From NCBI GenBank assembly GCA_001780985.1, contig MFJV01000001.1, forward strand, positions 37,466 to 101,465: a DNA stretch of 64,000 nucleotides, read 5' to 3'. The notes below the pieces were generated by a model. That model worked only from the letters and a program-made list of their open reading frames with translations, was not told the DNA's origin and did not search any database. Source of the DNA: Candidatus Gottesmanbacteria bacterium RIFCSPLOWO2_01_FULL_43_11b (lineage in GTDB: Bacteria > Patescibacteriota > Microgenomatia > UBA10105 > UBA927). Position 1 is the first letter of the stretch, and each line of letters starts with the position of its first letter. The position numbers were made by a program, and so were the translations under genes. Below are positions 28,387 to 63,901 of this stretch, piece by piece.

Positions 28387-28390
28387 TAAT

Positions 28391-28409: not shown

Positions 28410-28422
28410 ATCGTGTAGTCAA

Positions 28423-29371: not shown

Positions 29372-30064
29372 ATGAACGTAGAACGCGTATTTCTCAAACG
29401 AATCGATAAAGCAAATCTCGTGTGTCAACAACACCAAATTTGTAACCACGACCACAAGCATCACAAACGCGTTCTTGAAAACGCACTTGTTATAAACAGC
29501 ATCCTACCAAAACCTTTTAACGAACGGGATATACATACACTTGTTCTCGGCCATGACATCGGCTATAGTTGCCAAGGAATTGTCTGGGTAGGGAAAAATG
29601 CTATTAATCATGCTCAACGAGGTAATGAAGTTCTCAAACGCGCTGCGACAATATTTCTGAGAGGCCAAGAAAAAATCGCCGTAGTCGCGCTTATTAATAC
29701 ACTCCCCACAAACACAAAAGAAGCCATAGCACGTCTTGAGGCAACCGATCCTCTTCCTGCCGCAATTAAACTGGCTGATTGTCTAGACTACTTTCACACT
29801 GATCGTGTCAAGCATGTCCCTCAACCCTATCCTGACGAACATAACTACTACTTTTTAGCTAAGAGTGTTACGTCATACACAATCCATAACGAAGCACCCA
29901 AAACACTCGCATGGACCATTGATCTCAAGCCGGGCGTCGACAAAACCTTGTGGGAGTCGACCGCACAAGCAAATTTTCAACAAATTTTTACTCTTGCAGA
30001 ACTCTTTGCACAACGACTGCATTTTACATTTCGACTCGCATTGACATTGAATGGGGAGGCATGA
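29372..30064 (+). CDS. Hypothetical protein, possibly an HD-domain phosphohydrolase
   Basis: H..H...LVLGHDIGY...D pattern compatible with an HD domain. Weak. Confidence 0.3.
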   Translation: MNVERVFLKRIDKANLVCQQHQICNHDHKHHKRVLENALVINSILPKPFNERDIHTLVLGHDIGYSCQGIVWVGKNAINHAQRGNEVLKRAATIFLRGQEKIAVVALINTLPTNTKEAIARLEATDPLPAAIKLADCLDYFHTDRVKHVPQPYPDEHNYYFLAKSVTSYTIHNEAPKTLAWTIDLKPGVDKTLWESTAQANFQQIFTLAELFAQRLHFTFRLALTLNGEA

Positions 30065-48475: not shown

Positions 48476-49125
48476 ACATTACGATCCTTACTCTCTTCCC
48501 CGACATGATACGTTCGGCGTTAAACCACTCGATAATAAAACGGGCACTAAGTGCAGGTATACTCAAAATTACACTCGTTAATATCAGGGATTTTACGACT
48601 GACTCGTATAAATCGGTTGACGATCATCCCTATGGCGGGGGAGTCGGAATGATCATGCGCGTTGATGTTATTGACAGAGCACTCCAAAACCAGCGAGGGA
48701 AAAAAATCCTTCTTGATCCGCAAGGAAAACAATTTACACAAAGCACAGCCCGAAAGCTAAGTAAACTTGAAACTATAATACTAATCTGCGGGCACTATGA
48801 GGGAGTTGATGAGCGGGTTCGATCTATCGTTGATGAACAAATCTCCATCGGTGATTATGTTTTAACCGGTGGTGAAATTCCTGCACTTGTTGTTGTTGAC
48901 AGTGTTGCACGGCTTATTCCCGGTGTTTTATCAAAAGAAGAAGCGACTATCCACGAGTCTTTTTCCCCAAAACTCCTTGAGTACCCTCAATACACCCGGC
49001 CAGATGAGTACAAAGGAATGTCCGTTCCTGATATTCTCAAAGGTGGCAACCATGCCCAAATTGCAAAGTGGAGAATAGAACAAGCGAAAAAGAAAACATT
49101 ATCCCGCCGCCCTGATCTGGGTTAG
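48472..49125 (+). CDS. trmD: tRNA (guanine37-N1)-methyltransferase
   Basis: TLFPDM, ICGHYEGVDERV and GGE motifs of TrmD (SPOUT). Confidence 0.85.
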   Translation: MNITILTLFPDMIRSALNHSIIKRALSAGILKITLVNIRDFTTDSYKSVDDHPYGGGVGMIMRVDVIDRALQNQRGKKILLDPQGKQFTQSTARKLSKLETIILICGHYEGVDERVRSIVDEQISIGDYVLTGGEIPALVVVDSVARLIPGVLSKEEATIHESFSPKLLEYPQYTRPDEYKGMSVPDILKGGNHAQIAKWRIEQAKKKTLSRRPDLG

Positions 49126-49859
49126 GGGGCGAAGGGGTCAGGTTTGGCGATACCAATTGATGGAGGGGGCAGTTCCGTAGCTTGGGTAAGATTTGGGAGT
49201 GCTGCTACTTTTGCGATAACTTCTTCTTCCTCTGTTGATAGTGGAGATAGCTTTGCTTGTGCACTCGCTGCTCCAATTGAAAGTGGAGCAAAGTAACTTT
49301 CCATTTCTATTTTTGCCTGTACGTTTCCTGATACGCCGAGAGCCAGGTCAAAACTCTTAATTCCCATAAATCGACGAACTCTCCCTATCGTCTCAAAAAA
49401 TTGCAATACATTTTCTATGGGGCCGTCGATAAGCGCTGAAAACTGAACTGCTTTAGCACCAGAAGAATGTGCAGGCGATTTCTGGGCGGATTCCGTTGAT
49501 AATGATCCTCCTCCTGAGAGAGATACATTGAGTAAACTCACTCCGGACTGTCCGCTTACCCCCTCAAGTGTTACAAAAAGGGTCGGTACTGATGTTGTTG
49601 TTGGGACAGCAGCGCTCATTTCAAAAAGATCGCTTTTAAGAGACTCGCTGCTTTGTGAATTGAGGATATTCATTTTGTCAGAAAGATCGTTCATGTCTTT
49701 TTGAACGGTACTTTGCTGACCAAAAAGATTTATAGAAGATTGAATCGCCGGAATTATGCCAAAGATAGTTCCGAAAAAAATGACCAACAAAACAACAATC
49801 TGCCGAAGGAGCGGCTGGTATTCCCGAAAAAAACGGCGCTGTTCAATAGAAAGTTTCAT
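49122..49859 (-). CDS. pilO: Type IV pilus inner-membrane assembly protein PilO-like
   Basis: N-terminal TM plus coiled coil. Position after pilM-pilN. Confidence 0.5.
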   Translation of the reverse strand: MKLSIEQRRFFREYQPLLRQIVVLLVIFFGTIFGIIPAIQSSINLFGQQSTVQKDMNDLSDKMNILNSQSSESLKSDLFEMSAAVPTTTSVPTLFVTLEGVSGQSGVSLLNVSLSGGGSLSTESAQKSPAHSSGAKAVQFSALIDGPIENVLQFFETIGRVRRFMGIKSFDLALGVSGNVQAKIEMESYFAPLSIGAASAQAKLSPLSTEEEEVIAKVAALPNLTQATELPPPSIGIAKPDPFAP

Positions 49860-50398
49860 AAAACCGGAATAAATGTAATAACTAAACGTGATATTCCTTC
49901 TTTATCAATCCCAAATGAAGAAACTTGGGGACTGAGAATTTTTTTATTCTCTGTATCGGTTAATATCTCTGCAAGTATTGGGAACATTTCTTCAGTCGTA
50001 TTTGTTTGTATAGTCGCAACGACACGCCGTTTCGCATCAACTGCGATGGAAGATAGTGCCGGGGGAGGGGCTATTTCTGTCATTCGTGATAATGTTGACC
50101 CCCAATGTATCTGATCTTGTATAATTTTTCCTACAATTATGCCTCTTTGTTTAAGAGCCACAAGAAGTGCTTCTGCCTCCGCTTGTGCAGTAATTTGGGA
50201 TCGGAGTCTATCCCGTGCGCTTGTTAGTGTTGTTAAACGGAGCCTAAGGACTGCATACACTCCGCCAACGAGTAAACTAACGATCACAAAAATAGTTAAC
50301 CCGGTAACTGTAGTCTTTTGAAGGTTACCAATAAGATGAGAAAGACTCCCGGGAATCTTTGTTTGAGTAATGAGATTTATGGAACGGTTTTCTTCCAT
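49856..50398 (-). CDS. pilN: Type IV pilus assembly protein PilN-like
   Basis: Single TM, coiled coil, coupled to pilM. Confidence 0.5.
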   Translation of the reverse strand: MEENRSINLITQTKIPGSLSHLIGNLQKTTVTGLTIFVIVSLLVGGVYAVLRLRLTTLTSARDRLRSQITAQAEAEALLVALKQRGIIVGKIIQDQIHWGSTLSRMTEIAPPPALSSIAVDAKRRVVATIQTNTTEEMFPILAEILTDTENKKILSPQVSSFGIDKEGISRLVITFIPVL

Positions 50399-50417
50399 GT
50401 TGATTTGTATCTTTTAT

Positions 50418-51437
50418 TTACCGTAATGACAGTCCAACGGCAACGCTAAACACAGGGCCTTGTGAATCAAGTGCTGTGAACCTATTGTCGCGTTTTATTC
50501 CAATCCATGGATTAACCAACTGGGTCTCTATATTCATCTCGCTTGCTATATACACAACCATTCCGGGAACTTTTGACGTACCTCCAGAAAGAATAATAAC
50601 CTCTACGTGTTGATTGGGGTGTTCCTTTTCGTAAAATGCAATTGCCCGTTTCATTTCTCCGATAATAGTATCCATAATTGGTTTTACCGCCTCAACAATT
50701 TTTCCCTCCAGCTTATTTGTTTCTAATCCATAGATTTTTTTGTATTCCTCAGCCTGTGAAATATCAAATTCAAGCCGTTGAGCAAGCGCTCTCGAAAGCG
50801 CTTCACCACCGCTACTTATCGAACGTGTAAATGATAGAACTCCGTCTTCTAAGATGGCAAAGTCAGTGGTTTGAGCGCCTAATGAGGCAACCATCACGGT
50901 TCGAAGTGATGGCGTGGTTCTGATTACAGCGCGTGAGGCTGCAATAATTTCCGTTTCCACACCGACAGGTGTAATTTCAGCAAGTTCTAAAATTGTTAAG
51001 TACTTTTCCACTAAAACTTTAGGAGCAGCAACAAGGAGTGCTTCCATTGTTGATTTACCCGTTTGTTTACTATCGCGCAAGATTGTAAAGTCTAAATTTA
51101 CCTGATCAAGAGGAAGTGGAATATACTGTTCAGCTTCCCATCGCATGGCAGAAGAAAGTTCACGAGCAGATAGTTGCGGTACTGCGATAACTCTCGTAAA
51201 TACCTGTGATTCGGGGAGTGCCACATTGGCATCCCGGCTTTTGGCTCCGATATCTTTCAGGAGTTTTTTAAGTGCTACTGCCACTGCTTCGTAATCAACG
51301 CTGCTATTACTGCTTAATGCTCCGGGTGGTGTTGGAATTGATCCAGCAGAAAGAAGAGACGCTGTTTTAATATCTTTTGATATCTCCACGACTTTAATGC
51401 TATGAGAACCAATATCAACCCCAAGTATTGCATTCAT
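50418..51437 (-). CDS. pilM: Type IV pilus assembly ATPase-fold protein PilM
   Basis: Actin-like/FtsA fold start ILGVDIGSHSIKVVE. Confidence 0.75.
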   Translation of the reverse strand: MNAILGVDIGSHSIKVVEISKDIKTASLLSAGSIPTPPGALSSNSSVDYEAVAVALKKLLKDIGAKSRDANVALPESQVFTRVIAVPQLSARELSSAMRWEAEQYIPLPLDQVNLDFTILRDSKQTGKSTMEALLVAAPKVLVEKYLTILELAEITPVGVETEIIAASRAVIRTTPSLRTVMVASLGAQTTDFAILEDGVLSFTRSISSGGEALSRALAQRLEFDISQAEEYKKIYGLETNKLEGKIVEAVKPIMDTIIGEMKRAIAFYEKEHPNQHVEVIILSGGTSKVPGMVVYIASEMNIETQLVNPWIGIKRDNRFTALDSQGPVFSVAVGLSLR

Positions 51438-51461
51438 ATGGGCAGTCTGACAGCTATCTTT

Positions 51462-52286
51462 TTAGTAGCCAAATGAACTCTGACTATAGACAGCTGCGTC
51501 GAAAAGAGTGGGGGCGGAGGTGTATGTGTTGTCGACAACCACCTTTCTGGTCACACCTGTTTGGGTGGTGCCGACAGATTCTATCCGGCTTCCTTGAAGA
51601 GGGAGGCCTGATCCTGAACTGAAGGCAAATTGTGCATCCGCATAGACTGGGCGAAATCGTAATGCTATTAGAATATCCTGATTTGGTTGTATACTGTAGG
51701 AGGCAAATGAGAGTGTTTTTTTGTGGACATTCTCGAGTCCACATCCGGTACTTGCGGAAGAAATTTTTGTAAAATTATTGGTGTCAGCTCGTGATGAGTC
51801 AGGGTCAAATGCATCCCGGGCGACTTGGTAGGTTCCGTCAGCAGAATTCCTATATAAAAGTGAAATGACAACTGCAGTCTCGGGATTTCCCCGGCTCCAA
51901 CAGATATCGATGTTATCTCCTCCGTAGGTCACAATTTCAGAGATTGTTCCATCGGCATTATGTTCCACAAACCAGAATGTGTCTGTTGCTGCAATTGGCG
52001 TCTTTTTGGGAAATTTATAATCACCGATAACTCCACCCAAAGCATTTACTGTCGTTGTGTAGGTAATCCCTGATGTTAAAACTTGTGCGCCTGCTGTTCC
52101 TTGACCGCTTCGGAGAGCTTCTTCGATGCCTGCCTCAGCAGCTGAGAAAGCCCGTGCTGATTCTTCAACTTGGCCGCTTATTGATGTATCAATGGTTGTT
52201 CTGCCGATAACAGAGAGTGCGACGGTTACCCCAACAGCTAATACGAGAAGTGTAATAAGGACGATTTGTCCAGATTGTCTTTTCAT
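51462..52286 (-). CDS. Pilus-associated protein with a pilin-like hydrophobic N-terminus but no Glu+5 (PilX-like?)
   Basis: MKRQSGQIVLITLLVLAVG. Located between pilM and the pilin array. Confidence 0.35.
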   Translation of the reverse strand: MKRQSGQIVLITLLVLAVGVTVALSVIGRTTIDTSISGQVEESARAFSAAEAGIEEALRSGQGTAGAQVLTSGITYTTTVNALGGVIGDYKFPKKTPIAATDTFWFVEHNADGTISEIVTYGGDNIDICWSRGNPETAVVISLLYRNSADGTYQVARDAFDPDSSRADTNNFTKISSASTGCGLENVHKKTLSFASYSIQPNQDILIALRFRPVYADAQFAFSSGSGLPLQGSRIESVGTTQTGVTRKVVVDNTYTSAPTLFDAAVYSQSSFGY

Positions 52287-52307
52287 ATTTTTATTGTATA
52301 ACACTTT

Positions 52308-52850
52308 TTACTGCCGCGTCACAACAGTTGTTTGAAACTGTGTACTGGCCTTTTCAAATTGAGCTTCCGGCGTTCCAAGTTGTGATAGGGTAAACAGTAT
52401 TTGAATCTCCTTTTTTTCCTCGGCAATATCAGTGCAGATAAATGTGAGTGCGTTCGTACAAGAACTACCTAACGTAACGTTCTGATTTGTCAGGTATTCG
52501 GTTCTTGTTGCGCTTGTCGACGCAATACGTGCAATGGTGCCGTCCATTTGGCAGTCAAATGTTGTCGAATTTCCGTCAGTATTTAATAGTGAGAGGGATG
52601 ACGTTGTGGTACCCCCGGAACTACATGTCGTCGTAACCGATGAGGCATTTCGAATCATTCGTGACATCACGCTTAATGAGAAATCTCCGTTTTGCTTAAC
52701 CGTCGTCAAAAGATTTGTTTTGATATTAGTTCGCACCATGCTAAAAAAGCTTTGAGCAATCACCGAACCAACAATAGCAATAATACCCACGGAAACCAGT
52801 ATTTCAATAAGGGTAAAACCCCGCCAGTGGGCGGGCTGGCTTTTTTTCAT
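52308..52850 (-). CDS. Type IV prepilin-type protein (class III signal RG|FTLIE)
   Basis: MKKSQPAHWRGFTLIEILVSVGI; cleavage motif and Glu+5. Confidence 0.65.
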   Translation of the reverse strand: MKKSQPAHWRGFTLIEILVSVGIIAIVGSVIAQSFFSMVRTNIKTNLLTTVKQNGDFSLSVMSRMIRNASSVTTTCSSGGTTTSSLSLLNTDGNSTTFDCQMDGTIARIASTSATRTEYLTNQNVTLGSSCTNALTFICTDIAEEKKEIQILFTLSQLGTPEAQFEKASTQFQTTVVTRQ

Positions 52851-53275
52851 ATGTTTATTGTCCACTCGGTAAAAAACGTGGTGAGCGTGCTTTGGTGCGT
52901 TGCTCCACCATCTTGCCAACTTACGACACTCACTATATCCATACGTAAGTTGGTCTCGTTCCATGAAAAGGTAACAGCCCTCGTAAATGTATTATCAATA
53001 TTTATTGGGCAGGCTGTAATTGCCTGGGTCCATACACCGTCTTTATCAAGGCACCACAGGCCGGTCATATCATGAAACTCCGTCCAATTTTCATCACGGA
53101 GTTTCCGCGTTAACTCGATTGCTTCCTGGTTATATGAAACTGCTAAACTCCTCAATCTACTCTGATCGCTTGTTCTTATTGCAGTTGTTCCGCCTCCAAT
53201 TAGGCCAGTGACAAGGAGTAATACAATTCCAAGTGCGACCACGATTTCGGCTAGAGTCTGTCCTTTTTGATTCAT
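52847..53275 (-). CDS. Minor pilin/pseudopilin (KG|QTLAEIVVAL)
   Basis: Prepilin-like N-terminus with Glu+5. Confidence 0.55.
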   Translation of the reverse strand: MNQKGQTLAEIVVALGIVLLLVTGLIGGGTTAIRTSDQSRLRSLAVSYNQEAIELTRKLRDENWTEFHDMTGLWCLDKDGVWTQAITACPINIDNTFTRAVTFSWNETNLRMDIVSVVSWQDGGATHQSTLTTFFTEWTINI

Positions 53276-53289
53276 AAGAAAACATTCTG

Positions 53290-53781
53290 CTATTGGAATC
53301 CTCCGTCGGTGATCGTACCGTTCACTTCAACAACTATGTCGTAATTATGATTAAATCCGGAGACTGTTATTGTGACTGAATTATTTATATTCACTAACCC
53401 CCGCGTTAATACTCCGAATATAAGTGTCGTGGGAACGGGTACAAAAGACGTTGTGGTAGGGAGTGTTACATTCGTTATTGAGCCCACAAGCCCTTCAGGA
53501 GTACATTGTGCTTGGATACTATAGGAAGACTGGGTAAAGTTTACTGTGTAGCCGGTTAGTTCTGTGCAGCCGCTGGTTGGTTTTACACCGGATTGCGCCC
53601 TACTTTGTGCAAGACGTAAATTTGCTTTCACTGTTTGAGCTGTCTGTTTGACAACTTGGCTTTGGTTGTAGTTGTTGTAACTAATAAGTAACCCGCCCAA
53701 TAGAAGCATCAGGACTCCTATGGAAACAAGGAGCTCAATAAGGGTAATACCAAAGCAGCGTGGAATGTGACGATTCGTCAT
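53290..53781 (-). CDS. Type IV prepilin-type protein (CFG|ITLIELLVSI)
   Basis: Class III signal plus Glu+5. Confidence 0.6.
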   Translation of the reverse strand: MTNRHIPRCFGITLIELLVSIGVLMLLLGGLLISYNNYNQSQVVKQTAQTVKANLRLAQSRAQSGVKPTSGCTELTGYTVNFTQSSYSIQAQCTPEGLVGSITNVTLPTTTSFVPVPTTLIFGVLTRGLVNINNSVTITVSGFNHNYDIVVEVNGTITDGGFQ

Positions 53782-54233
53782 GGACTTTTTAATCCGTAAT
53801 TGTGGGAATTAACCGTATCGGGTGTGCAGGTATCGGTGGGGTTCTCCGTTTCAATGAGACTGCTTACGCAGTAACCGTAATAGTTACCGCTTACTAAGTT
53901 GGTTGCCTGATAGCGATAAACCTGAGTAGTACTTTTCGGGTCGCTGGGAATCGCTGCCATGTAACTTGAAACAAGTGTTGCAGATAAGTTACTTGCATCC
54001 GTCCAGCTGCCGCTTCCCGTATTTGGATACCCCCCGTTATCGGATCTGTACATTTCCAAAGCAGATCGGATCTGCTCCATATCGCTTTTCCGTTTTGTAT
54101 CACGGCTTCTTTTGTTGATATTGGTGTAGGAAACAATGCCGATAGCGGTAAGAACGGAAATTATGGTTGCGGTTACCAGAACTTCAACAAGTGTAAATCC
54201 CCGCCAGTGGGCGGGCTGGCTGTTTTTTTTCAT
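53778..54233 (-). CDS. Type IV prepilin-type protein (RG|FTLVEVLV)
   Basis: Shares a near-identical leader-coding stretch of about 35 nt with the gene at 52308-52850. Confidence 0.65.
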   Translation of the reverse strand: MKKNSQPAHWRGFTLVEVLVTATIISVLTAIGIVSYTNINKRSRDTKRKSDMEQIRSALEMYRSDNGGYPNTGSGSWTDASNLSATLVSSYMAAIPSDPKSTTQVYRYQATNLVSGNYYGYCVSSLIETENPTDTCTPDTVNSHNYGLKSP

Positions 54234-54643
54234 TGGAGATTTTTAACACAAAAGTACGCACCGCTCCCGAAGGTACAGGACGCATCGGATGCATTTCCCA
54301 ATGTCGTTGTCCCTTCAAGGAGTGCACAACTGCAGTATGTTGCGCCGGTTGCGTCGCAGGTTATGGTGTAGGCAACACTGGTTTTCGGATCTTTGGGAAT
54401 TCCGGCTGGTAGGTACGTTGTTCCTACAGTGCATGAAGCAGAGGTTGGGTACGCGCGGTTATCTGCGTAGTACTGCTCAAGTCCATTCTGGATAGCTCGG
54501 AGGTCTCCCTGACGTCTACCATCTCTGCTTTTTTTCTGTGCTGAAGTAAATGCCGCGGTACCGATGGAAATGAGAATGCCTATAATTGCAACAACAACCA
54601 AAACCTCAAGGAGAGTAAAACCACGTACGAATCGTTGTTTCAT
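54230..54643 (-). CDS. Type IV prepilin-type protein (RG|FTLLEVLVVV), with a conserved pilin alpha1 region
   Basis: MKQRFVRGFTLLEVLVVVAIIGILISIGTAAF. Confidence 0.65.
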   Translation of the reverse strand: MKQRFVRGFTLLEVLVVVAIIGILISIGTAAFTSAQKKSRDGRRQGDLRAIQNGLEQYYADNRAYPTSASCTVGTTYLPAGIPKDPKTSVAYTITCDATGATYCSCALLEGTTTLGNASDASCTFGSGAYFCVKNLQ

Positions 54644-55322
54644 AGAGAATTGAGATAAGCGCACCGAGTATAAGAAACGGGCCAAATGCAATTTTGCTTT
54701 TTAGCCCCGCACGCTTTCTTAAAATTAGTATGACACCCACAATAGCTCCAGTCAAGAATGCAACATAGAGTGCAAAAGCGATTCTGGGAAATCCTAAAAA
54801 GAGTCCCAGGAGGAATCCAAGTTTAACGTCTCCTAACCCCATACCTCGCCCTTTTGTAATTATCCACAGGAGGAGGAAAAAGAGTGCTGCACCAATGCCG
54901 GGAATAAAATATGGCTTCGATAGGAGAGCACCAAGAATTCCCACAAGAATCATGCTATCCGGGATAATTTGATATTTAAGGTCTGCAACAAAAATAACAA
55001 GGAGTGCACAAAAAATAATCATGAATGCATATTGGGGATACAGCAATAGAAAACCAAAGCCTGTTGTTAATTCAATAAGAGGATACTGTAATGATAGTCG
55101 TTTGTGACATCGTCTGCATCGGCCAAATTGTCCGATATATGAAATTATGGGAACAAGTTCAAACCAACGAAGCTTTTTGTTACAATGGTCACAGTGCGAC
55201 CTGCCCCAAATTGTCTGCCCCCTCGGTAACCGGTCAATGAGCACATTCATAAACGATCCGAAAGAAATACCGAGTAAAAAAAATACAATAGGAGTCACGA
55301 ACATACCGTAGCATACAAACAT
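54606..55322 (-). CDS. pilD: Prepilin peptidase (A24 family) with an N-terminal zinc-finger
   Basis: CDHCNKKLRWFELVPIISYI..CRRCHKRL and the catalytic Asp-containing TM core. Confidence 0.8.
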   Translation of the reverse strand: MFVCYGMFVTPIVFFLLGISFGSFMNVLIDRLPRGQTIWGRSHCDHCNKKLRWFELVPIISYIGQFGRCRRCHKRLSLQYPLIELTTGFGFLLLYPQYAFMIIFCALLVIFVADLKYQIIPDSMILVGILGALLSKPYFIPGIGAALFFLLLWIITKGRGMGLGDVKLGFLLGLFLGFPRIAFALYVAFLTGAIVGVILILRKRAGLKSKIAFGPFLILGALISILYETTIRTWFYSP

Positions 55323-55324
55323 AT

Positions 55325-57511
55325 ATGTTTACAACAAAAAGATATTGGCACGACTTAGTTTGTATTCTGTTTATTTTTTTCGTCATCGGATTATTTTTTC
55401 TGCCGCTATTTTGGCCGCAACAAAAACTTATTGTAACGCCGGATTTTGGCAGAAGCGACGCATGGCACTTCAGTTTTCCGACGAAATATCTCCTTTGGGA
55501 AAGTATCCAGCAAAATAAACTCCCGCTGTGGACCGATAAAATAGGTACGGGTTTTCCAATATTTGCAGAAGGACAGATTGGGGCTCTCTATATACCAAAT
55601 CTCATTATATACAAACTTTCGTCAAATCCGGTTGCTGCATATAACTTAAGCTATGTTTTTACCATGCTTACGCTCGGGTGGGGGATGTACGTATGGTTAC
55701 GGACACTGAAAATTTCCTATATTCCAAGTTTATTCGGCGCTCTCACTTTGATTCTTTCAGGTATTGTTGTCTTACAGTTTCCCCATGTGACCCTTCTCCA
55801 AGGATTTTCGCTATTACCCTGGTTTATGGCAGTTATTCAAAAACTCAGTGAAAAATTCAGCAGACGTCTTATTGGAATAGCTGCAATTCTTCTTTCACAA
55901 CAATTCTTTGCTGGTTTTCCTCAAGCAACGTTTCTTACATTACTTTTTGCGGGGTCATGGGCTCTTTTTGATCGTATTCTCATTCCGTTTATCCTTGTAG
56001 TTTTTCTCGGAATTGGTATAAGTGCTATTCAGATTCTCCCTTCGTGGGAGTTTATTAAGGAAGCAGGTATCTCCGGAGGATTATCTCCGGGGATGGCGAG
56101 CTACTTTTCATTCCCGCTTGTTCATCTTTTAAGTTTTTTTAATCCTTTTGCCGTCGGCAACCCAAAGTTCGGAACCTATCCGCCTTTTTCAGAATTCGAC
56201 GGGAGTATTTTTTGGGAAAATACGGGCTATGTTGGCCTTTTGCCACTCACTCTTCTCCTTATTCCTCTTCGGTATCGAAACAAACGTACTGTCTTCTTTT
56301 TTGCAGTACTGCTTATGTCCTTTCTTTTCATGTGGGGGAGTCACTCGCCGCTCTATTTTATTTACTCAATCTGGCCATTTAACCTCTTTCGCGTCCCGTC
56401 ACGATTTTTATGGATTTTTGTGTTTGCATTGCTCACTCTCTCATCCTTGGCTATACAAAAGATTTTTGATCTCAAAGTAAAAAGAACTCTCATTGGCCTC
56501 ACTCTCGTTCTCATACTCATAAATACCGGTCAATTATTCTTTCTTTGGAAACCGTATCACTTGATAGAAAATGCAGACCTCTGGGTTAAAAAACCGGAAC
56601 TAGCGACTCTCATTTCAAAAACCTCACGAATGCTTACTCTCGGAGCTGAATCTGCCCATAATGCATTCTTTTTAAAATCCGGCTGGAAAGAAGAAAATCC
56701 GTATCTATCGCTTCGATCTACTTTAGCGCCTGATAGCAATATTATTTGGGATATTTCTCAACACGAAGCATATGCAGGAAGATCACTTCGACGCCCGGGT
56801 TTTGTGGATAGCTTGCTATTGAGTCATATGCATATAAATGAAAATGAAGCATCGGGATCCGCTATGTTTCAAAAACTTATTGATCTCCTTGGAATAACGC
56901 ACGTTGTTAGTACCCTCCCTTTAACTTTTGATACTAATCTTCAGAAACCGCTCATTTTTGACCAACAGATTAACGGTACAGGTGATTATGTGCGGCTTTA
57001 TGTAAATCCAACTGCCTTACCACGAGCGTATTTTGCAACTGACACAATTAGCGTCCGTACGGTGGAGTCTGCAATTTCAGCATTAACTAAAGATTCGTTT
57101 GATCCAAAAAAATCCGTACTTGTTGAAAAAGACTTATCAGTGCCTTATGGAGAAGGGGGATCTGTAAATGTCGAATCTAGTAAATCAAATGAGCTTATCG
57201 TAACCACCCAAAGTGAGACTCCTGGGGTTTTAGTCACCCTGGATACATTCTATCCGGGTTGGCATGCATATATTGATGGAAGATCTGAGGTTGAAATATT
57301 TCCGGTTAATATTAGGTTTAGGGGGGTTGTTGTTCCAAAGGGGAGTCATACAGTAACATTCATCTATTCCCCGAATAGCGTTCGAGTTGGGGCCGCTGTT
57401 AGTTTAATGGCGTTTCTCGTTCTTGTTGTTCTTTTTCGAACTGAGAAAAAAGTTCTCCGGCCCGCACCTGTTCTCCGCAGGCGCGGTAAGCCTCGGACTC
57501 GTAGAGGGTGA
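55325..57511 (+). CDS. YfhO-family polytopic membrane protein (putative glycosyltransferase)
   Basis: Multi-TM N-terminal domain with a YfhO-like start, plus a large extracytoplasmic C-terminal domain. Overlaps the convergent DUF2723 gene by 113 bp. Confidence 0.5.
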   Translation: MFTTKRYWHDLVCILFIFFVIGLFFLPLFWPQQKLIVTPDFGRSDAWHFSFPTKYLLWESIQQNKLPLWTDKIGTGFPIFAEGQIGALYIPNLIIYKLSSNPVAAYNLSYVFTMLTLGWGMYVWLRTLKISYIPSLFGALTLILSGIVVLQFPHVTLLQGFSLLPWFMAVIQKLSEKFSRRLIGIAAILLSQQFFAGFPQATFLTLLFAGSWALFDRILIPFILVVFLGIGISAIQILPSWEFIKEAGISGGLSPGMASYFSFPLVHLLSFFNPFAVGNPKFGTYPPFSEFDGSIFWENTGYVGLLPLTLLLIPLRYRNKRTVFFFAVLLMSFLFMWGSHSPLYFIYSIWPFNLFRVPSRFLWIFVFALLTLSSLAIQKIFDLKVKRTLIGLTLVLILINTGQLFFLWKPYHLIENADLWVKKPELATLISKTSRMLTLGAESAHNAFFLKSGWKEENPYLSLRSTLAPDSNIIWDISQHEAYAGRSLRRPGFVDSLLLSHMHINENEASGSAMFQKLIDLLGITHVVSTLPLTFDTNLQKPLIFDQQINGTGDYVRLYVNPTALPRAYFATDTISVRTVESAISALTKDSFDPKKSVLVEKDLSVPYGEGGSVNVESSKSNELIVTTQSETPGVLVTLDTFYPGWHAYIDGRSEVEIFPVNIRFRGVVVPKGSHTVTFIYSPNSVRVGAAVSLMAFLVLVVLFRTEKKVLRPAPVLRRRGKPRTRRG

Positions 57512-59300
57512 TATTGGGCTGCGGAGTAAAACTTGTCTCTTTGGCTTTACTAAAATGTTCAAGTGATTTTTGGCAATCATCTAAAAATAGCTCGGTAAGT
57601 CCAAGGTACATGTAGCTATCAGAGAGTTCAGTATCACCACTAATATTGATCGCTAGTTCAAACTGATGTTTTGCCTCTGCTAGTTTACCCGCCCGCACCA
57701 GCAATTTCCCTAGCTCAATTCTTGCTCCCATATAGACGTTTAAAACATCTGAGAGCATGAGATGGCTATATCGGGATAATAAACCAGCTTTGGGGTCATG
57801 ATACGTATTCCATACTGTTTCGTTTGTTTTAATAAGATCGTCAAAAGAAGGAAGATCAACTTCTTTTGTTAGGGTAAAAACGAGACCGAGCGGAACCCAA
57901 AAATACCCATCAGGCACCGTTAGTCTCGCATTACTCACGATGGGGAAATTTTTCGCATTGGATTCAATAAACTCACGCATAGTTTTTCCTGTAGATAGAA
58001 CGTCCGGATAGTTTTTAGCTAGTATTGAAGGATAGTCTGGTGAGGATAATCGCGCTGTATGAAGTAGTTTAATATCCTTTCTTTTTCCCAAGGCGTACCT
58101 CGCATATTGAGAAGTAAAAAGCGGTGTATCTCGTTGGAGAAGAAGTATTGCTCCATATGGCGTAGAGTTAAGTATATCAAGAGCGAGATTTTCGGCCGTC
58201 CTATCGACTCTAAGCCCCCAAAATCGCCATAGGGTCGTCCCATTGGAAAGGAGCGGGTAAAAAAACAATACTATTATTAAAAGAGTGGCAATGGATTTAC
58301 GGGTAAAGTCAAATATTCCCGCAACGCCACATCCGATAAAAATAGAGAGAAAGATATAACTAGGCAACAAAAACCGTTCGTAGGTTCCTAAGGTAAACCT
58401 ATTAACCAGCGGAAAACTCGCATAAAAGAAAAAAAATGGTCCGAGAAAAAAAAGCGCAAAAAATAGTCCCAGTGCAAACCGTTTATCTTTTCGCCATATC
58501 CAAATACATCCAATTATAGATAGAAGTATTCCTACAAGTTGAAAATCGAGGTAGGTAAATGTTACGTACGTTTTTACCTGCAGAATGCGGTCAGAGAGCT
58601 GACTGCCGTAAAATCCGCTTGATACAAATGTCCCGTAATCTTCACGGGTCAGCAAACGGATAAAATTTTTAAAATTCACCGCCCTATCCCAATTAATGAT
58701 TGCATTTCCGGAAGCCGCTATGGGTATATAGAAGTAGGGCAGAAGGCCGAGAATAAGAGGAACCGGTCGAATTTTCCTTACCCAATAGAGCAGGGTGGGG
58801 ACGAAAAAGAGGATGACGTGGTGGTGGGCGAGGGACAGTCCAAAAACAAAACTCACCCAAATATTGCGACGGGTGTAGATAAGATAGGTGAGAAGTATCA
58901 GAAATAAATCAAACAGAGCAAACACTTCCGCAGTTGTGCTGTAGAGGAAAAATAAATAATTACCCACTAGTACTAGGGAAGCAAAAATTCCTGCTACGAG
59001 TCTCCCGGTCATTTTCCATACAAGAACCATCACGAGGGTTGCGGTGACTGCATGGGGGATCGATGAGAGAAGGCTAAGGCGCCATACAACAGAAAAAAAC
59101 GGCAATTTCGAAAATAGGAATCCTAACAATGTATAGAGCGGGTAGCCCGGCGGGTGGGGGACGCCGCCAAGGTATGCAGCAGTGACAAGATCCCCTGTAT
59201 CACCGCCGTAAATTCCATTCGCTTGAAATAATAAGAATAGAAGCCACAAAAAAAGGCCCCAGACATATGGCAGGACAACTGTCATACTCTTAGAAACCAT
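57399..59300 (-). CDS. DUF2723 (TMEM260-like) membrane glycosyltransferase with C-terminal TPR repeats
   Basis: GGDTGDLVTAAYLGGVPHPPGYPLYTLLG matches the DUF2723 GDxGE...HPPGYPL signature. Multi-TM; TPR-like tail. Confidence 0.55.
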   Translation of the reverse strand: MVSKSMTVVLPYVWGLFLWLLFLLFQANGIYGGDTGDLVTAAYLGGVPHPPGYPLYTLLGFLFSKLPFFSVVWRLSLLSSIPHAVTATLVMVLVWKMTGRLVAGIFASLVLVGNYLFFLYSTTAEVFALFDLFLILLTYLIYTRRNIWVSFVFGLSLAHHHVILFFVPTLLYWVRKIRPVPLILGLLPYFYIPIAASGNAIINWDRAVNFKNFIRLLTREDYGTFVSSGFYGSQLSDRILQVKTYVTFTYLDFQLVGILLSIIGCIWIWRKDKRFALGLFFALFFLGPFFFFYASFPLVNRFTLGTYERFLLPSYIFLSIFIGCGVAGIFDFTRKSIATLLIIVLFFYPLLSNGTTLWRFWGLRVDRTAENLALDILNSTPYGAILLLQRDTPLFTSQYARYALGKRKDIKLLHTARLSSPDYPSILAKNYPDVLSTGKTMREFIESNAKNFPIVSNARLTVPDGYFWVPLGLVFTLTKEVDLPSFDDLIKTNETVWNTYHDPKAGLLSRYSHLMLSDVLNVYMGARIELGKLLVRAGKLAEAKHQFELAINISGDTELSDSYMYLGLTELFLDDCQKSLEHFSKAKETSFTPQPNITLYESEAYRACGEQVRAGELFSQFEKEQQERETPLN

Positions 59301-59311
59301 TTCTTGTTAAC

Positions 59312-59836
59312 TTACTGTACGCAGTAGAAGCAACTCTCAAGTCCGCCGGATGATTCTGATATACAACCGCTCGTTGCAAGGCCGCCGCTACCGTATACTG
59401 TATTTGCGTTCGCATTGAATGTTTTTGACTCCGGATCGTAACACACCGCAAGGTGGTCAACGGCAGTCGACGTCACAAGCATTTTTGCTAAATTGCCCGT
59501 TCCCGCAATGTCCATGAACCGATTCTTGAGCTCTCCTGCGTTTACGAGCGACGTAATATCGGATCCCATGGTGTCTGCCCCTCGTGCAGTAAATGTCGTT
59601 CCGGTTCCCCATGTAAACTGACCTTTGGTAGAGTAGTACCTAAGGTTTGCATTAAGGAACTCAGCGACCATGTTGGAAACTGATGTATCTCTCCCTTTCT
59701 TCAGCTGTTCAAACGGGTCCACGGTTGCTAAAAGTCCTATTGCGAGTGCTCCCAGAAGTGCGATGACGATAAGAAGCTCAACGAGGGTAAAACCCTGCCT
59801 GCCGGCAGGCTGGACATGGGACAGATATTTTTTCAT
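59312..59836 (-). CDS. pilA: Type IV pilin (candidate major pilin; RQG|FTLVELLIVIALLGALAIG; C-terminal Cys pairs)
   Basis: Class III signal, Glu+5, conserved alpha1 helix, C-terminal CxxxxC disulfide loop. Confidence 0.7.
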   Translation of the reverse strand: MKKYLSHVQPAGRQGFTLVELLIVIALLGALAIGLLATVDPFEQLKKGRDTSVSNMVAEFLNANLRYYSTKGQFTWGTGTTFTARGADTMGSDITSLVNAGELKNRFMDIAGTGNLAKMLVTSTAVDHLAVCYDPESKTFNANANTVYGSGGLATSGCISESSGGLESCFYCVQ

Positions 59837-59903
59837 AAAATTTACCTCTACATTTAGGTCTATCAGTCTTTGTACACCCTTGTCAAGTCCCTAAATTACT
59901 CTT

Positions 59904-61115
59904 TTATTTAATTTGACTTGTAAGGTTATATATTGGGGTAATTACTGAAATAACGATAAACCCAACACCAAGACCCAAAACCACCATGATGACCGGTTCA
60001 ATTGCGGTCGTTAAACCTTTGACGAGTCGCTCTGATTCTGTTTGAAAGTATCGTGAGAGCTTGGTTAACGTGTCATCAAGTTTTCCCGTTTCCTCTCCTA
60101 CTTTCATCATTTGGGAGACAATTGGCGGAAATACACTATACTGGGCAAAACTGTCAGCCAAGGGGAGACCTTTCTCCACACGCACCGCAGCATCTGCTAC
60201 AGCATTACGAAAAAGTATATTATCAAGAGATCCTTTGAGAATGCGCAGTCCTTCCAGGATATGAATGCCACTTCCGATAAGCATTGCAAGCGTTCTTGTA
60301 AATTCAACGAGAATTACTTTTCTTTTAAGGTCACCAACTATGGGAACTTTCAGGATTAACGTGTCCATGATTGTTTGGCCGACCGGTGTTTTTTTCCAAC
60401 GGGCAAAACCAATATACATGCCGATGATTGCAGCAATGGCAAGCCACCAAAATCGGACAAACAATGAGGAAACGTCAATGAGGAATTGAGTGCTAGCAGG
60501 AAGCTCCGTTCCAAAATCTTTATACAGTTCCGTAAGTTTCGGAATCACCACCGTCATCATGATAAAAACAACAACCGTCATTCCGATCATAATAATTGCC
60601 GGATACACCATTGCTCCCCCGACTTTTCCCCGAAAGTCCCGTTCATTCTCCATAGTTTCTGCGAGTCTATTAAGCACTTTATCGAGTGTTCCGGAGGATT
60701 CTCCTGCACGAATAAGTGCAATATAAATTGAGGAAAAATACTTAGGATACCTTGCGAGTGCGTCACCAAGATTTCCACCTGCAATAATTTGCGAGGCAAC
60801 ATCATCAAGCATAGAGGATAAAAGTGGATTTTCTGTTTGATTCCGTAAAATTGTGAGTGACTCAGGTAAAGAGAGACCGGCAGTTATCATTGTTGAAAGC
60901 TGCTGAGTAAAATTTACAATATCACCAAAACTAACTCTTCGAAATCGTGACAAAATGCTCGGAAGTGGTGACTGATCTCGTCCTGTAACGAGTTCAACAA
61001 CAAAAAGCTTTTTATCCCGGAGAACCCGGACAGCAGCAGGTGAGGAGGGGGCTTCCACAATACCACTTACTTGCTTTCCATCATTATCTCGAGCCTTATA
61101 GGTATAAAAAGCCAT
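59904..61115 (-). CDS. pilC: Type IV pilus platform protein PilC (GspF family)
   Basis: Two GspF repeats and 3 TM. 403 aa. Confidence 0.8.
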   Translation of the reverse strand: MAFYTYKARDNDGKQVSGIVEAPSSPAAVRVLRDKKLFVVELVTGRDQSPLPSILSRFRRVSFGDIVNFTQQLSTMITAGLSLPESLTILRNQTENPLLSSMLDDVASQIIAGGNLGDALARYPKYFSSIYIALIRAGESSGTLDKVLNRLAETMENERDFRGKVGGAMVYPAIIMIGMTVVVFIMMTVVIPKLTELYKDFGTELPASTQFLIDVSSLFVRFWWLAIAAIIGMYIGFARWKKTPVGQTIMDTLILKVPIVGDLKRKVILVEFTRTLAMLIGSGIHILEGLRILKGSLDNILFRNAVADAAVRVEKGLPLADSFAQYSVFPPIVSQMMKVGEETGKLDDTLTKLSRYFQTESERLVKGLTTAIEPVIMVVLGLGVGFIVISVITPIYNLTSQIK

Positions 61116-61121
61116 AGGGTA

Positions 61122-62177
61122 TTATTGCGTTTTGAGTAACCTCCCGAGCTCATCAGGACGGATTGCAAAAGAGGATGCTGTTTCCAAAGTAATTTTCCGT
61201 TCAGTTACTGCTCGGGAAAGCGATGTTTCGAGCGTCATCATACCAATCTCTGCTGATGTTTGAATGACATTATCAATTAAATGAGTCTTACCATCGCGAA
61301 TGAGTGTCCGAACAGCAGGCGTTGCCAAAAGTACTTCAGAAACAACTGTTCGTCCACCTGATGTTGTCGGAACTAATCGTTGAGAAATGACTCCCTCAAG
61401 TACTGATGAAAGTTGAATTTTAATTTGCGCCTGTTGATTTTCCGGAAATACATCAACAATACGGTCAATTGTTTGGGCAGCTGAGTTTGTATGGAGTGTT
61501 GCAAATACAAGATGCCCTGTTTCAGCAATGGTAAGTGTTGCAGCAATCGTTTCATAGTCACGCATCTCACCAACAAGCACAACGTCGGGATCTTCCCGAA
61601 GGACACTTCGCAGTGCAATTGACCACGAGTGGGTATCGCTGTGCATCTCCCGTTGCGAAATAAGGGAGAGTCCCGGAGGATATATGTATTCAATAGGATC
61701 TTCAATAGTAATTATATGGAGGGATTTTGATTGGTTAATTGCACCAATCATTGCAGCAAGGGTCGTTGATTTTCCGTGACCGGTTGGACCGGTAACTAAA
61801 ATTAGCCCTTGGCGACGTTTAACAAACTCGTGACAAATTGTTGGGAGACCCAATTCATCAATCGTTCTAATTTTAGCCGGGATCAGTCGAAATGATGCAC
61901 CAATCGTTCCTTTTTGATAGTAGGCGTTGGCACGAAACCGTCCCACAGCCGCAGGAACGGAAAAATCAATTTCTTTATTTGTAAGAAAGAGTTCTTTTTG
62001 TTGAGTGCTAAAAACAGCAAATACCAGATTCTCAAGTTCTTCTTTTACGAGCGGTTTGGTTCCTTCAACCGAAACAAGTTTCCCGGCAACTCTCAGAACC
62101 GGTGGGAATCCGGCAACCAAATGTAGGTCAGACGCCTCCAAACGAACTGTTTCAGCAAATAGTTGATTGATATCCAT
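61122..62177 (-). CDS. pilT: Twitching-motility retraction ATPase PilT
   Basis: GPTGHGKSTT Walker A. Asp box and His box of PilT/GspE ATPases. 351 aa. Confidence 0.8.
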   Translation of the reverse strand: MDINQLFAETVRLEASDLHLVAGFPPVLRVAGKLVSVEGTKPLVKEELENLVFAVFSTQQKELFLTNKEIDFSVPAAVGRFRANAYYQKGTIGASFRLIPAKIRTIDELGLPTICHEFVKRRQGLILVTGPTGHGKSTTLAAMIGAINQSKSLHIITIEDPIEYIYPPGLSLISQREMHSDTHSWSIALRSVLREDPDVVLVGEMRDYETIAATLTIAETGHLVFATLHTNSAAQTIDRIVDVFPENQQAQIKIQLSSVLEGVISQRLVPTTSGGRTVVSEVLLATPAVRTLIRDGKTHLIDNVIQTSAEIGMMTLETSLSRAVTERKITLETASSFAIRPDELGRLLKTQ

Positions 62178-62182
62178 AAATA

Positions 62183-63901
62183 TTAGTCCTGGGCAACTCT
62201 CAATACTTCCTCAAGTGTTGTCACTGCCTCAAGTACTTTGAGATACCCATCCTGTTTCATTGTAATCATGCCCTCTGAAACTGCTTTATCTTCAATATCT
62301 TTCATGGGGGTTCTCGTTAAAATGAGCTTACTTATCGCATCTGTCACAGGAAACACTTCAAATATACCGACTCTTCCATGATAGCCTGTTTTTGAACAAT
62401 TGGAACAATCAGCTCCATTCATTGTTCCTTTTCCTCGATAGAGTTTCATTGAAGATCCTTGGGGGAGTAAATTGCCTAAAACTTTCTTTACATCCTCAGA
62501 AACTGCTGCCTCGGGTTCATATTCTTCTTTACAGACACTACAAATTCTCCGCGCAATCCGTTGCCCGACAACAGCATTGAGCGCACTTGCGACCAAAAAC
62601 GGTTCTGCGCCTAAATCCAAAAGGCGGGGGATGGCCCCAGCTGCATTATTCGTGTGAAGTGTAGAAAATACTAAGTGGCCGGTTAATGCTGCCTGAATTG
62701 CAAGATCGGTCGTTTCTTTATCACGAATCTCTCCAACCAAAATTATATTAGGGTCTTGTCGTAAAAAACTACGCAGTCCCGTTGCAAAGGTAAGTCCTGC
62801 GGTCGGATTAATTTGCACCTGATTAATACCTGCAATTTGGTACTCAACAGGATCTTCGAGGGTGAGAATATTCACTCTGGAATTATTGAGCTTAGATAGC
62901 ACTGCGTAGAGTGTCGTCGTTTTTCCACTTCCCGTTGGCCCGGTTACTAAGATAATACCGTGGGGTCTCGTTATTGATGTTTCAAGATGTTTAAGTGCCA
63001 GTCCCCGAAGTCCTAACTCATTCATGGTGGGAACCCCACCGGATTTTTTGAGGAGCCGCATCACAATTTTTTCTCCGTGTACGGTCGGAAGTGACGAAAC
63101 ACGGAGGTCAACTTCGTTTTCTCCCATTTTAAAATTAAACCGTCCGTCTTGTGGAATTCTTTTCTCATCAATTTTCATGTCTGCTAAAATTTTAATACGC
63201 GAAATAACCGCCTCTTGAAGTCTCCGGGGTAGTGCAAGCCGCTCTTCTAAAATTCCGTCAACACGGTAGCGAACTCGTGTATCACCTAGTTGCGGTTCAA
63301 CGTGCACATCTGATGCACGAAGTCTTATTGCTTGTTCTAAAATTGCAGATACTATTTGCGCAATCGGCGCTTCACGAATAACCTCTCCAAGTTTTCCTGC
63401 CTCATATGTTTTTATCTCCTCCGGAGCTTCTTTGAGTGCTGCGGTCACATCTGCACCCATCTCTTGTGTGTAGATATCCTCAATTGTTGCGAGAATATCA
63501 TCTTTCATTGCCATGAATGGCTTAATTGTTTTTCCGGATTTTTTCTCAAGAAATTCAAGTACCTGAAAGTCAAGTGGGTCGAGCATGGCAACGGATAATT
63601 CGTTTGTTTTTTCGTCGTAGAGGAATGGAGCTAATGTATACCGTCTACTCACAGGTTCCGGAATAAAATTTACAACGTCCGGAGAAATTGAACGCACGCC
63701 GAGAGTGACAAAGGGAATGTTGAGAGTTTTTGCCCGGGCTTTTGTGACATCAATCTCAGTTACTAACCGTTTTCTTGTTATCAGTTCTTCAATGGAAGTT
63801 CCGGTTGAAAGGGATTGGGTATTGAGCTCTTCTGCTTGCTTTGGTGTTAACTTTTTATCAGCAACAAGCGCTTCTAATAATTGTTGGGCAGCAATGGCCA
63901 T
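62183..63901 (-). CDS. pilB: Type IV pilus extension ATPase PilB (GspE family) with N-terminal GSPII_E_N domain and a tetracysteine zinc motif
   Basis: GPTGSGKTTTLYA Walker A. CSVCKEEY...CSNCSKTG. Confidence 0.85.
   Translation of the reverse strand: MAIAAQQLLEALVADKKLTPKQAEELNTQSLSTGTSIEELITRKRLVTEIDVTKARAKTLNIPFVTLGVRSISPDVVNFIPEPVSRRYTLAPFLYDEKTNELSVAMLDPLDFQVLEFLEKKSGKTIKPFMAMKDDILATIEDIYTQEMGADVTAALKEAPEEIKTYEAGKLGEVIREAPIAQIVSAILEQAIRLRASDVHVEPQLGDTRVRYRVDGILEERLALPRRLQEAVISRIKILADMKIDEKRIPQDGRFNFKMGENEVDLRVSSLPTVHGEKIVMRLLKKSGGVPTMNELGLRGLALKHLETSITRPHGIILVTGPTGSGKTTTLYAVLSKLNNSRVNILTLEDPVEYQIAGINQVQINPTAGLTFATGLRSFLRQDPNIILVGEIRDKETTDLAIQAALTGHLVFSTLHTNNAAGAIPRLLDLGAEPFLVASALNAVVGQRIARRICSVCKEEYEPEAAVSEDVKKVLGNLLPQGSSMKLYRGKGTMNGADCSNCSKTGYHGRVGIFEVFPVTDAISKLILTRTPMKDIEDKAVSEGMITMKQDGYLKVLEAVTTLEEVLRVAQD

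Follow-up and report, generated by a model that had tools for sequence, protein, structure and literature searches.

The type IV pilus locus of Candidatus Gottesmanbacteria bacterium RIFCSPLOWO2_01_FULL_43_11b, a member of the Candidate Phyla Radiation (CPR), probably carries a built-in pilin-accessory O-glycosylation cassette, to judge from its gene families, conserved residues and gene order. We present here an analysis of this cassette in a 64,000-nucleotide stretch of contig MFJV01000001.1 (assembly GCA_001780985.1), called the window below; coordinates are those of the window unless another locus is named. Two genes for membrane glycosyltransferases of the glycosyltransferase C (GT-C) fold lie between the major prepilin gene pilA and the prepilin peptidase gene pilD. 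The first encodes a homologue of human TMEM260 (DUF2723) and is the constant partner of pilA; the slot behind it, filled here by a YfhO-family gene, is a variable glycosylation island. The features on which the argument turns are given below, with lengths in amino acids (aa) and with open reading frame abbreviated as ORF.

59312..59836, minus strand: pilA, major prepilin, 174 aa (N_methyl, E = 3.1e-07; TIGR02532)
57399..59300, minus strand: TMEM260-like (DUF2723) GT-C glycosyltransferase, 633-aa ORF (PF11028, 57.7 bits)
55325..57511, plus strand: YfhO-family GT-C glycosyltransferase, 728 aa (PF09586, 62.8 bits)
57399..57511: convergent overlap of the two glycosyltransferase ORFs, 113 bp (from the ORF coordinates)

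By its sequence, the 633-aa protein is well supported as a genuine TMEM260 homologue. It matches PF11028 over residues 34-173 (E = 1.7e-15; 57.7 bits against a cut-off of 24.2), the TMEM260-like annotation is also found on its public gene calls, and Pfam gives weak matches to tetratricopeptide repeats (TPR) at its C-terminus. A family profile of 21 homologues was matched to human TMEM260 (9rql_A; solved structures 9rql/9rqm/9rqn) with E = 1.5e-66 and 228 bits, profile positions 13-471 aligning with residues 33-490, which cover the membrane core and the Rossmann-like domain. An earlier sequence-only reading of the window had assigned the protein to DUF2723 by a GDxGE...HPPGYPL signature. The family stands, on stronger grounds than were claimed for it (full-length homology to the solved human enzyme and conservation of its essential residues); the loop itself reads GGDTGD...HPPGYPL, not GDxGE, and the human protein has GDSGE.

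Human residues D52, H67, R264, Y267, R355, and D441 align with D34, H49, R219, Y222, R309, and D391 of the 633-aa protein, and all six are invariant in the 21 homologues, which are 46-61% identical to it. TMEM260 is a protein-specific O-mannosyltransferase that is inactive as the D52A mutant, and its bacterial relatives have been called only "distant homologs", with no function assigned (Larsen et al., PMC10214176). In the human enzyme, D52 and H67 form the sugar-recognition motif, R264 and Y267 belong to the donor loop, R355 in transmembrane helix 10 contacts the donor mannose, and D441 in the Rossmann-like domain is the catalytic base; mutation of any of the six abolishes activity, and an extended acceptor peptide is recruited by the TPR domain, which is both required and enough for this (bioRxiv 10.64898/2026.03.17.711096). 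An AlphaFold2 model of the 633-aa protein (predicted local distance difference test [pLDDT], 84; predicted template modelling score, 0.83) has about 11 membrane helices (residues 4-360), an alpha/beta domain (385-480), and TPR-like helical repeats (507-628). Foldseek matched it in the PDB to the GT-C enzymes PglB, AftA, DPY19, ALG9, and ALG12 and to TPRs of the OGT/MamA type.

Relatives were collected by a scan of one genome per species, which yielded 80 loci whose proteins range from 55% down to 24% identity to the 633-aa protein; the pilus proteins of the window were mapped onto these loci by tblastn, and prepilin signals were searched. Among loci with enough upstream sequence, the TMEM260-like gene is directly preceded by a prepilin gene on its own strand in all 21 at 33% identity or more, in 37 of 49 at 28% or more, and in 2 of 22 below 28%, for 39 of 71 overall (40 counting L033, found by tblastn only). 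The linked loci are labelled Gottesman-, Woese-, Roizman-, and Levyibacteria, with one Paceibacterota. The pair of pilA and the TMEM260-like gene is intact where pilB-pilT-pilC is inverted relative to it (L015, L027, L033, L036, and L039) and where it lies several kilobases away from the other pilus genes (L041 and L068). The conservation check proposed by the sequence-only reading therefore comes out in its favour for the adjacency of pilA and the TMEM260-like gene, which is kept even in rearranged relatives. The gap between the two genes in the window is only 11-26 nt and therefore has no room for a terminator. Outside the CPR, most homologues lack pilus genes in their vicinity, with two kinds of exception. 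In a Nitrospirota locus (L058, 5714-9302), pilB, pilC, and four tandem, near-identical 102-aa pilin genes are followed by a TMEM260-like homologue, and in three Elusimicrobia loci (L062, L063, and L072), a prepilin gene lies 0.7-0.8 kb downstream of the homologue; these look like independent recurrences of the same association. A metagenome scan with the pattern GFTL[IV]ELL[IV] returned mostly unrelated pilins on short contigs among the matches listed and was uninformative on PilA orthologues that lack the enzyme.

Many records of CPR-type loci in this set (L001, L005, L011-L014, L020-L022, and others) are titled "uncultured Gammaproteobacteria bacterium". These titles, on third-party metagenome-assembled genomes, are evidently wrong; gene content and closest relatives indicate Patescibacteria.

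PilA has the cleavage site G|FTLVE and 1323 homologues. Its orthologues conserve helix alpha-1, the motifs GELK, VCFxPESKSF, and DPNTxY, and a C-terminal Cys loop (C...CYYCVQ), and their variable parts, which lie after alpha-1 (GTGTT, NTATTTN, etc.) and in or before the C-terminal loop, are rich in Ser, Thr, and Gly. In PilA itself, the Ser/Thr-rich stretches are residues 72-95, past helix alpha-1, and the Cys-bounded C-terminal loop. A model made from database homologues (pLDDT, 72) falls below 50 at residues 147-168, which are read as flexible. The C-terminus, which the sequence-only reading had proposed to inspect for Ser/Thr-rich sites, is a flexible Ser/Gly/Thr-rich loop, though the Ser/Thr content of PilA as a whole does not exceed that of the minor pilins. 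Extended Ser/Thr-rich segments are the targets of TMEM260 and of YfhO-type protein glycosyltransferases, and the flexible segments of PilA agree with, and do not prove, its candidacy as the acceptor. Pfam detected no IPT domain in PilA, only N_methyl.

The 728-aa protein belongs to the YfhO family, as had been proposed: a profile search matched PF09586 in two stretches (E = 2.9e-17; 62.8 bits against a cut-off of 28.5), and NCBI and JGI annotations use the same name. It has 425 homologues, many of them on the same contigs as TMEM260-like homologues. The first outside loop carries a TPDxGxxD motif whose residues T38-P39-D40, G42, and D45 do not vary among 21 homologues; the alignment profile gave no matches to PDB sequences. 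A convergent YfhO gene lies directly after the TMEM260-like gene in 21 of the 34 pilA-linked loci with room downstream, the same place as in the window, and YfhO is an accessory, lineage-variable partner, not the equal of the TMEM260-like enzyme. In other lineages, the slot, as well as the gap between YfhO and pilD, holds PMT_2/PMT-type GT-Cs, family 2 glycosyltransferases (GT2s), a short-chain dehydrogenase/reductase resembling GDP-fucose synthase, and methyltransferases. The GT2s, present in the equivalent island of L017, L020, L029, and L044, are nearest to the polyprenyl-phosphate-sugar synthases AglJ, PpgS, ArnC, and PgfS (NCBIfam; all below the equivalog cut-offs).

A polytopic protein of about 410-460 aa recurs between the glycosyltransferases and pilD in several related loci. 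Its members have motifs such as PNLGFFS.P.F and VLKEAP in common, and the one member scanned (L021) has no Pfam match; the protein could be a further glycosyltransferase or a flippase. The coordinates below are those of each locus.

L018, 4335-5624: polytopic island protein
L019, 4263-5654: polytopic island protein
L021, 14116-15465: polytopic island protein
L025, 14004-15347: polytopic island protein
L040, 2090-3316: polytopic island protein
L047, 14095-15360: polytopic island protein

The sequence-only reading had suggested that the two membrane proteins O-glycosylate pilin. Family membership and conserved adjacency support this, and a working scheme can be proposed, in which we infer what the acceptor and the sugar are, in what order the steps run, and what YfhO contributes. 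PilA would be co-transcribed with the TMEM260-like enzyme, the genes being only 11-26 nt apart, and would be inserted in the membrane through the N-terminal helix, its globular part facing outwards. The 11-helix GT-C core of the enzyme would bind a polyprenyl-phosphate hexose, most likely mannose, and the extracytoplasmic TPR domain would capture an extended Ser/Thr-rich segment of the pilin. Transfer to a pilin Ser or Thr would take place before polymerisation, with D391 of the Rossmann-like domain as the base. YfhO, a second GT-C presumed to use lipid-linked monosaccharide donors, would add a further or different sugar to the same glycan. The lineage-variable slot, filled elsewhere by other GT-Cs and donor-synthesis genes, would make the pilus glycan differ between lineages. 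The pay-off may be that pili are masked from phages or that attachment to hosts is tuned.

Several points weigh against an O-glycosylation cassette dedicated to pilin. We know of no CPR pilin that carries a glycan. No gene for a GT2 polyprenyl-phosphate-sugar synthase, a flippase, or sugar-nucleotide synthesis was found in the 64-kb window. PilA contains 19% Ser/Thr, not more than the minor pilins do (20-30%), and the acceptor could therefore be another pilin. Pilus genes are absent from the neighbourhood of about 30 more distant homologues (Bdellovibrio, Verrucomicrobia, Acidobacteria, and others), so the TMEM260-like family as a whole is not pilin specific. Synteny among the relatives is partly shared ancestry and, to that extent, not independent evidence. 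Relatives of YfhO in Firmicutes glycosylate teichoic acids too.

Three other explanations were considered. The TMEM260-like enzyme, with or without YfhO, might serve general extracytoplasmic protein O-glycosylation, with many Ser/Thr-rich surface clients of which PilA would be one at most; the minor pilins, the PilX-like protein of the locus, and sortase-anchored adhesins would be others, after the manner of Neisseria PglL and streptococcal PgtC2. The minor pilins are as rich in Ser and Thr as PilA or richer, the YfhO-family enzymes PgtC2 and PgfM1 serve several unrelated membrane proteins, the window also encodes an 1840-aa SpaA-repeat surface protein and sortases, and the distant homologues stand apart from pilus genes. 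We nevertheless regard such a general system as unlikely: the adjacency is specific to the pilA orthologue and outlasts separation from the minor-pilin operon (L041 and L068), and human TMEM260 is narrow, TPR guided, and client specific.

It is likewise unlikely that both GT-Cs decorate non-protein envelope polymers (teichoic-acid-like polymers, lipoglycans, or cell-wall polysaccharide), their place in the pilus locus being inherited synteny or co-regulation. Many GT-C families act on glycolipids or polysaccharides, a glycosylated CPR pilin is not known to us, and the YfhO proteins of Bacillus subtilis and Listeria glycosylate lipoteichoic and wall teichoic acids (PMC5836110). The sole characterised member of the TMEM260 family, however, is an O-mannosyltransferase that acts on protein, and the 633-aa protein has kept that enzyme's TPR domain and its catalytic base on the acceptor side; the tight coupling to pilA (11-26 nt) is kept through rearrangements, and Nitrospirota and Elusimicrobia show the pilin link again. 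A role for the TMEM260-like protein as a chaperone or assembly adaptor of pilins, exerted without catalysis through its TPRs and with a degenerate GT core, by analogy with TPR pilotins and with TfpY-type proteins, which are encoded after pilA and are non-enzymatic assembly factors (PMC11841053), is very hard to credit even though TPR domains mediate protein binding, because the six donor-binding and catalytic TMEM260 residues are invariant at 46-61% identity, which would not be expected of a dead enzyme and makes it unlikely, on sequence grounds, that the 633-aa protein is one.

A pilin-accessory O-glycosylation cassette would have its functionally closest counterpart in the Pseudomonas pilin-accessory cassette, above all in TfpW, the 646-aa pilin D-arabinofuranosyltransferase of Pseudomonas aeruginosa strains belonging to group IV (Pa5196/PA7), which is needed for D-arabinofuranose on pilin Ser/Thr. 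Both genes lie immediately downstream of pilA. Each protein has some 640 aa, a GT-C fold, and about 11 membrane helices; the first loop outside the membrane carries an acidic motif, and the C-terminus forms a large TPR domain on the extracytoplasmic side. TfpW modifies Ser/Thr of the major pilin from a polyprenyl-phosphate-linked sugar, and the same role is proposed for the TMEM260-like enzyme. The two nevertheless appear to belong to different GT-C families, to judge from the published motifs of TfpW, DDX and YX6PFX7P: regular-expression searches of the 633-aa protein found neither a DD within residues 1-60 nor YX6PFX7P, and GGDxGD...HPPGYPL is present instead. Unlike the TfpW system, the window has no genes of the D-arabinofuranose pathway, pilA and the TMEM260-like gene have no terminator between them, and the host is a secretin-less CPR bacterium. 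The three-part architecture and the six essential residues, including the catalytic base of the Rossmann-like domain, are shared with human TMEM260, an O-mannosyltransferase of the endoplasmic reticulum for the IPT domains of MET, RON, and plexins. The bacterial protein differs in its place in the cytoplasmic membrane, in its presumed donor, a bacterial polyprenyl-phosphate sugar and not dolichol phosphate mannose, and in its presumed acceptor, a type IV pilin.

The 728-aa protein resembles PgtC2 of Streptococcus pyogenes and Streptococcus pneumoniae and PgfM1/PgfM2 of Streptococcus mutans, which are GT-Cs with YfhO domains that act outside the membrane. Undecaprenyl-phosphate sugars are used by PgtC2 and PgfM1 to O-glycosylate surface proteins in Ser/Thr-rich, extracytoplasmic segments (PMC12041528), and the S. 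mutans Pgf operon likewise pairs two GT-Cs and adjoins its adhesin substrates. The similarity to PgfM1 is weak (NCBIfam PgfM1, 18.5 bits, where the cut-off is 1400), no GT2 partner (GtrB/PgfS) adjoins the gene in the window, and the substrate would be a pilin, not a sortase-anchored adhesin. The YfhO-CsbB-GtcA systems of B. subtilis and Listeria share the Pfam family and the three-component logic of a cytoplasmic GT2, a flippase, and an outside GT-C; there the acceptor is teichoic acid, whereas here no homologue of CsbB or GtcA is nearby and the context is pilus, not cell-wall, genes. TfpO/PilO and PglL (Wzy_C) also glycosylate type IV pilin Ser/Thr on the membrane's outer face, with tfpO directly after pilA, but belong to an unrelated family and transfer preassembled undecaprenyl-pyrophosphate-linked oligosaccharides en bloc. 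No oligosaccharyltransferase of the Wzy_C type was found among the locus proteins with Pfam and NCBIfam, in line with the non-PglL/TfpO route that the sequence-only reading had put forward.

The ORF listing and translations show an unbroken pilus gene block at 49122-63901, all on the minus strand except one gene: pilB-pilT-pilC-pilA, the TMEM260-like gene, the convergent YfhO gene, pilD, five prepilin genes (pp1 to pp5), a PilX-like gene, pilM, and two PilN/O-like genes. Public gene calls give shorter products for four genes: the TMEM260-like protein starts at Met6 (59285) and has 628 aa, pp1 has 137 aa, pp5 has 180 aa, and the PilX-like protein has 274 aa; a longer public contig of the same organism with the same locus (L151) was used for gene starts and for the check upstream of pilB. 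The remaining genes of the block are as follows.

62183..63901, minus strand: pilB, pilus extension ATPase, 572 aa (Pfam T2SSE, 7.8e-127; MshEN, 5.7e-14)
61122..62177, minus strand: pilT, retraction ATPase, 351 aa (Pfam T2SSE, 5.9e-45)
59904..61115, minus strand: pilC, platform protein, 403 aa (Pfam T2SSF, 9e-64, two stretches)
54606..55322, minus strand: pilD, prepilin peptidase, 238 aa (A24_N_bact, 1.2e-29; Peptidase_A24, 6.6e-13)
54230..54643, minus strand: prepilin pp1, 137 aa from an ATG, with a TTG ORF to 54691 (N_methyl, 8.9e-08; GspG-like N-terminus)
53778..54233, minus strand: prepilin pp2, 151 aa (T2SSG, 1.2e-06; N_methyl, 7.7e-06)
53290..53781, minus strand: prepilin pp3, 163 aa (N_methyl, 1.1e-04; GspH-like matches)
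52847..53275, minus strand: prepilin-like pp4, 142 aa, G|QTLAE (N_methyl, 20.8 bits, cut-off 21.2; ComGE-like and XpsI-like matches)
52308..52850, minus strand: prepilin pp5, 180 aa from an internal Met (N_methyl, 1.8e-05)
51462..52304, minus strand: PilX-like protein, 274-280 aa (PilX_N, 4.2e-04, 20.7 bits, below the cut-off of 25.5)
50418..51437, minus strand: pilM, 339 aa (PilM_2, 4.6e-62)
49856..50398, minus strand: PilN-like single-pass membrane protein, 180 aa (after pilM; size; one N-terminal membrane helix)
49122..49859, minus strand: PilO-like single-pass membrane protein, 245 aa (position; size; single N-terminal membrane helix)

Pfam and NCBIfam identify PilB, PilT, PilC, PilD, PilM, and prepilins with the G|F-x-x-x-E signal, and all the genes named for this contiguous locus by the sequence-only reading are present. 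A few of its assignments stand with qualification. PilA and five further proteins carry the N_methyl motif of the six prepilins claimed, pp4 just below the cut-off; the PilX-like gene has a sub-threshold PilX_N match, and its position is kept in relatives. Of the claimed pilMNO set, pilM is identified by PilM_2, whereas the PilN-like and PilO-like ORFs have no family-model matches in Pfam or NCBIfam and are putatively named by position, size, a single membrane helix, and conserved orthologues (26-43% identical and in the same position in relatives for PilN; 22-39% identical for PilO). The orthologues of pilT in related loci are 64-79% identical. A secretin domain was looked for and not found among window ORFs of at least 150 aa or within 6 kb upstream of pilB in L151, as the sequence-only reading had said of pilQ. 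The block is confirmed as a type IV pilus locus without a secretin, in a CPR bacterium of the Gottesmanbacteria type. The lack of a secretin is expected, being already known from monoderm and CPR bacteria, and is no novelty. Outside the block, the window holds housekeeping genes, a class A penicillin-binding protein, and a SpaA-repeat surface protein with two sortases, which is consistent with a small monoderm-type CPR genome. The proteins are 100% identical to "ACD_36" entries of an uncultured groundwater bacterium, and their relatives bear the labels Candidatus Gottesmanbacteria or Patescibacteria.

The 113-bp overlap reported between the 3′ ends of the TMEM260-like and YfhO genes is exact (57399-57511), and most related loci also have a convergent overlap, of about 15-140 bp. 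An explanation by frameshift or misassembly was rejected: both ORFs are full length, independent assemblies show the same arrangement, and the overlap is comparable in most relatives. The C-terminus of the TMEM260-like protein (..ETPL) is conserved. The YfhO tail past the last membrane helix is basic yet not conserved, and a functional role for it was set aside; for that reason, we read it as probably a mere read-on cytoplasmic tail of a real overlap. The start codons of pilD (ATG, 55322, minus strand) and YfhO (ATG, 55325, plus strand) diverge 2 bp apart (0-120 bp in relatives). Their promoters would therefore lie within neighbouring coding sequences, or pilD and the genes downstream of it would be transcribed by read-through antisense to YfhO. 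Scans of 49-64 kb gave 25 sigma-70 promoters against 28 +/- 5.5 in shuffled sequences and 18 terminators against 14.6 +/- 4.3, with no excess of either, and are thus silent on the transcription of YfhO and pilD.

Three of the six prepilin genes contain perfect GC-rich hairpins in the part that encodes the leader peptide, just 5′ of the G|FTL cleavage site (59798-59809, 54200-54215, and 52820-52835); a near copy lies at 25689-25704, after a sortase gene. The pilA hairpin, CCTGCC/GGCAGG, encodes QPAGRQ, and an identical 16-mer, CCCGCCCACTGGCGGG, is found in the pp2 and pp5 leaders, where it encodes QPAHWR. Leaders of the form ..PAGRQGFTL or ..LPARQGFTL recur in some orthologues, not all. The sequence could be a translation-damping mRNA hairpin or a small palindromic insert tolerated in the cleaved leader.

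Elsewhere in the window, a second surface-fibre or adhesin locus occupies 12250-25643. An 1840-aa surface protein in it (12250-17772) has seven SpaA_2 repeats of the prealbumin fold; two sortases are encoded at 18669-19280 and 24984-25643, and several large ORFs, among them 20949-22226 and 22324-24435, have no Pfam match. A thiamine pyrophosphate (TPP) riboswitch at 29278-29387 on the plus strand (61.7 bits against a gathering score of 54.3) lies upstream of a 230-aa ORF without a Pfam match (29372-30064), whose start it overlaps slightly and which may encode an unrecognised thiamine-related transporter. A 243-aa ORF on the minus strand (27691-28422) has an IS200-like Y1 transposase domain (E = 1.2e-06) and sits where the GC content reaches its minimum in the window (0.39 at 26-28 kb).

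CPR bacteria, or Patescibacteria, rely on type IV pili for attaching to and living on their hosts, and to our knowledge, nothing is known of the modification of these pili. A full-text literature search for "DUF2723" found one paper only, the TMEM260 paper; no paper joining DUF2723/TMEM260 with pilin was found, and none on CPR pili that describes a pilin glycosyltransferase. A study of Saccharibacteria only predicts possible O-glycosylation sites. The conserved, pilin-coupled glycosyltransferase described here predicts that CPR pili are glycosylated, names a candidate enzyme, and offers a first concrete substrate hypothesis for bacterial TMEM260/DUF2723 proteins. It would be a third independent enzyme family at the position right after pilA, after the Wzy_C-type TfpO/PglL and TfpW. 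Human TMEM260 is mutated in a syndrome of heart and kidney malformation, and a small bacterial enzyme-substrate pair could be a tractable model for its mechanism. More tentatively, a large clade of bacterial TMEM260 homologues may be O-mannosyl (hexosyl) transferases dedicated to type IV pilins, and CPR pili may be coated by two GT-Cs, the second component and the donor genes lying in a fast-swapping island. If so, the prokaryotic members of a family so far known only through an enzyme of human congenital disease would gain their first assigned substrate. The variable island suggests glycan diversification, which is relevant to phage-host and symbiont-host recognition, and the pilus glycan would then be a lineage-specific surface code for host attachment or phage evasion.

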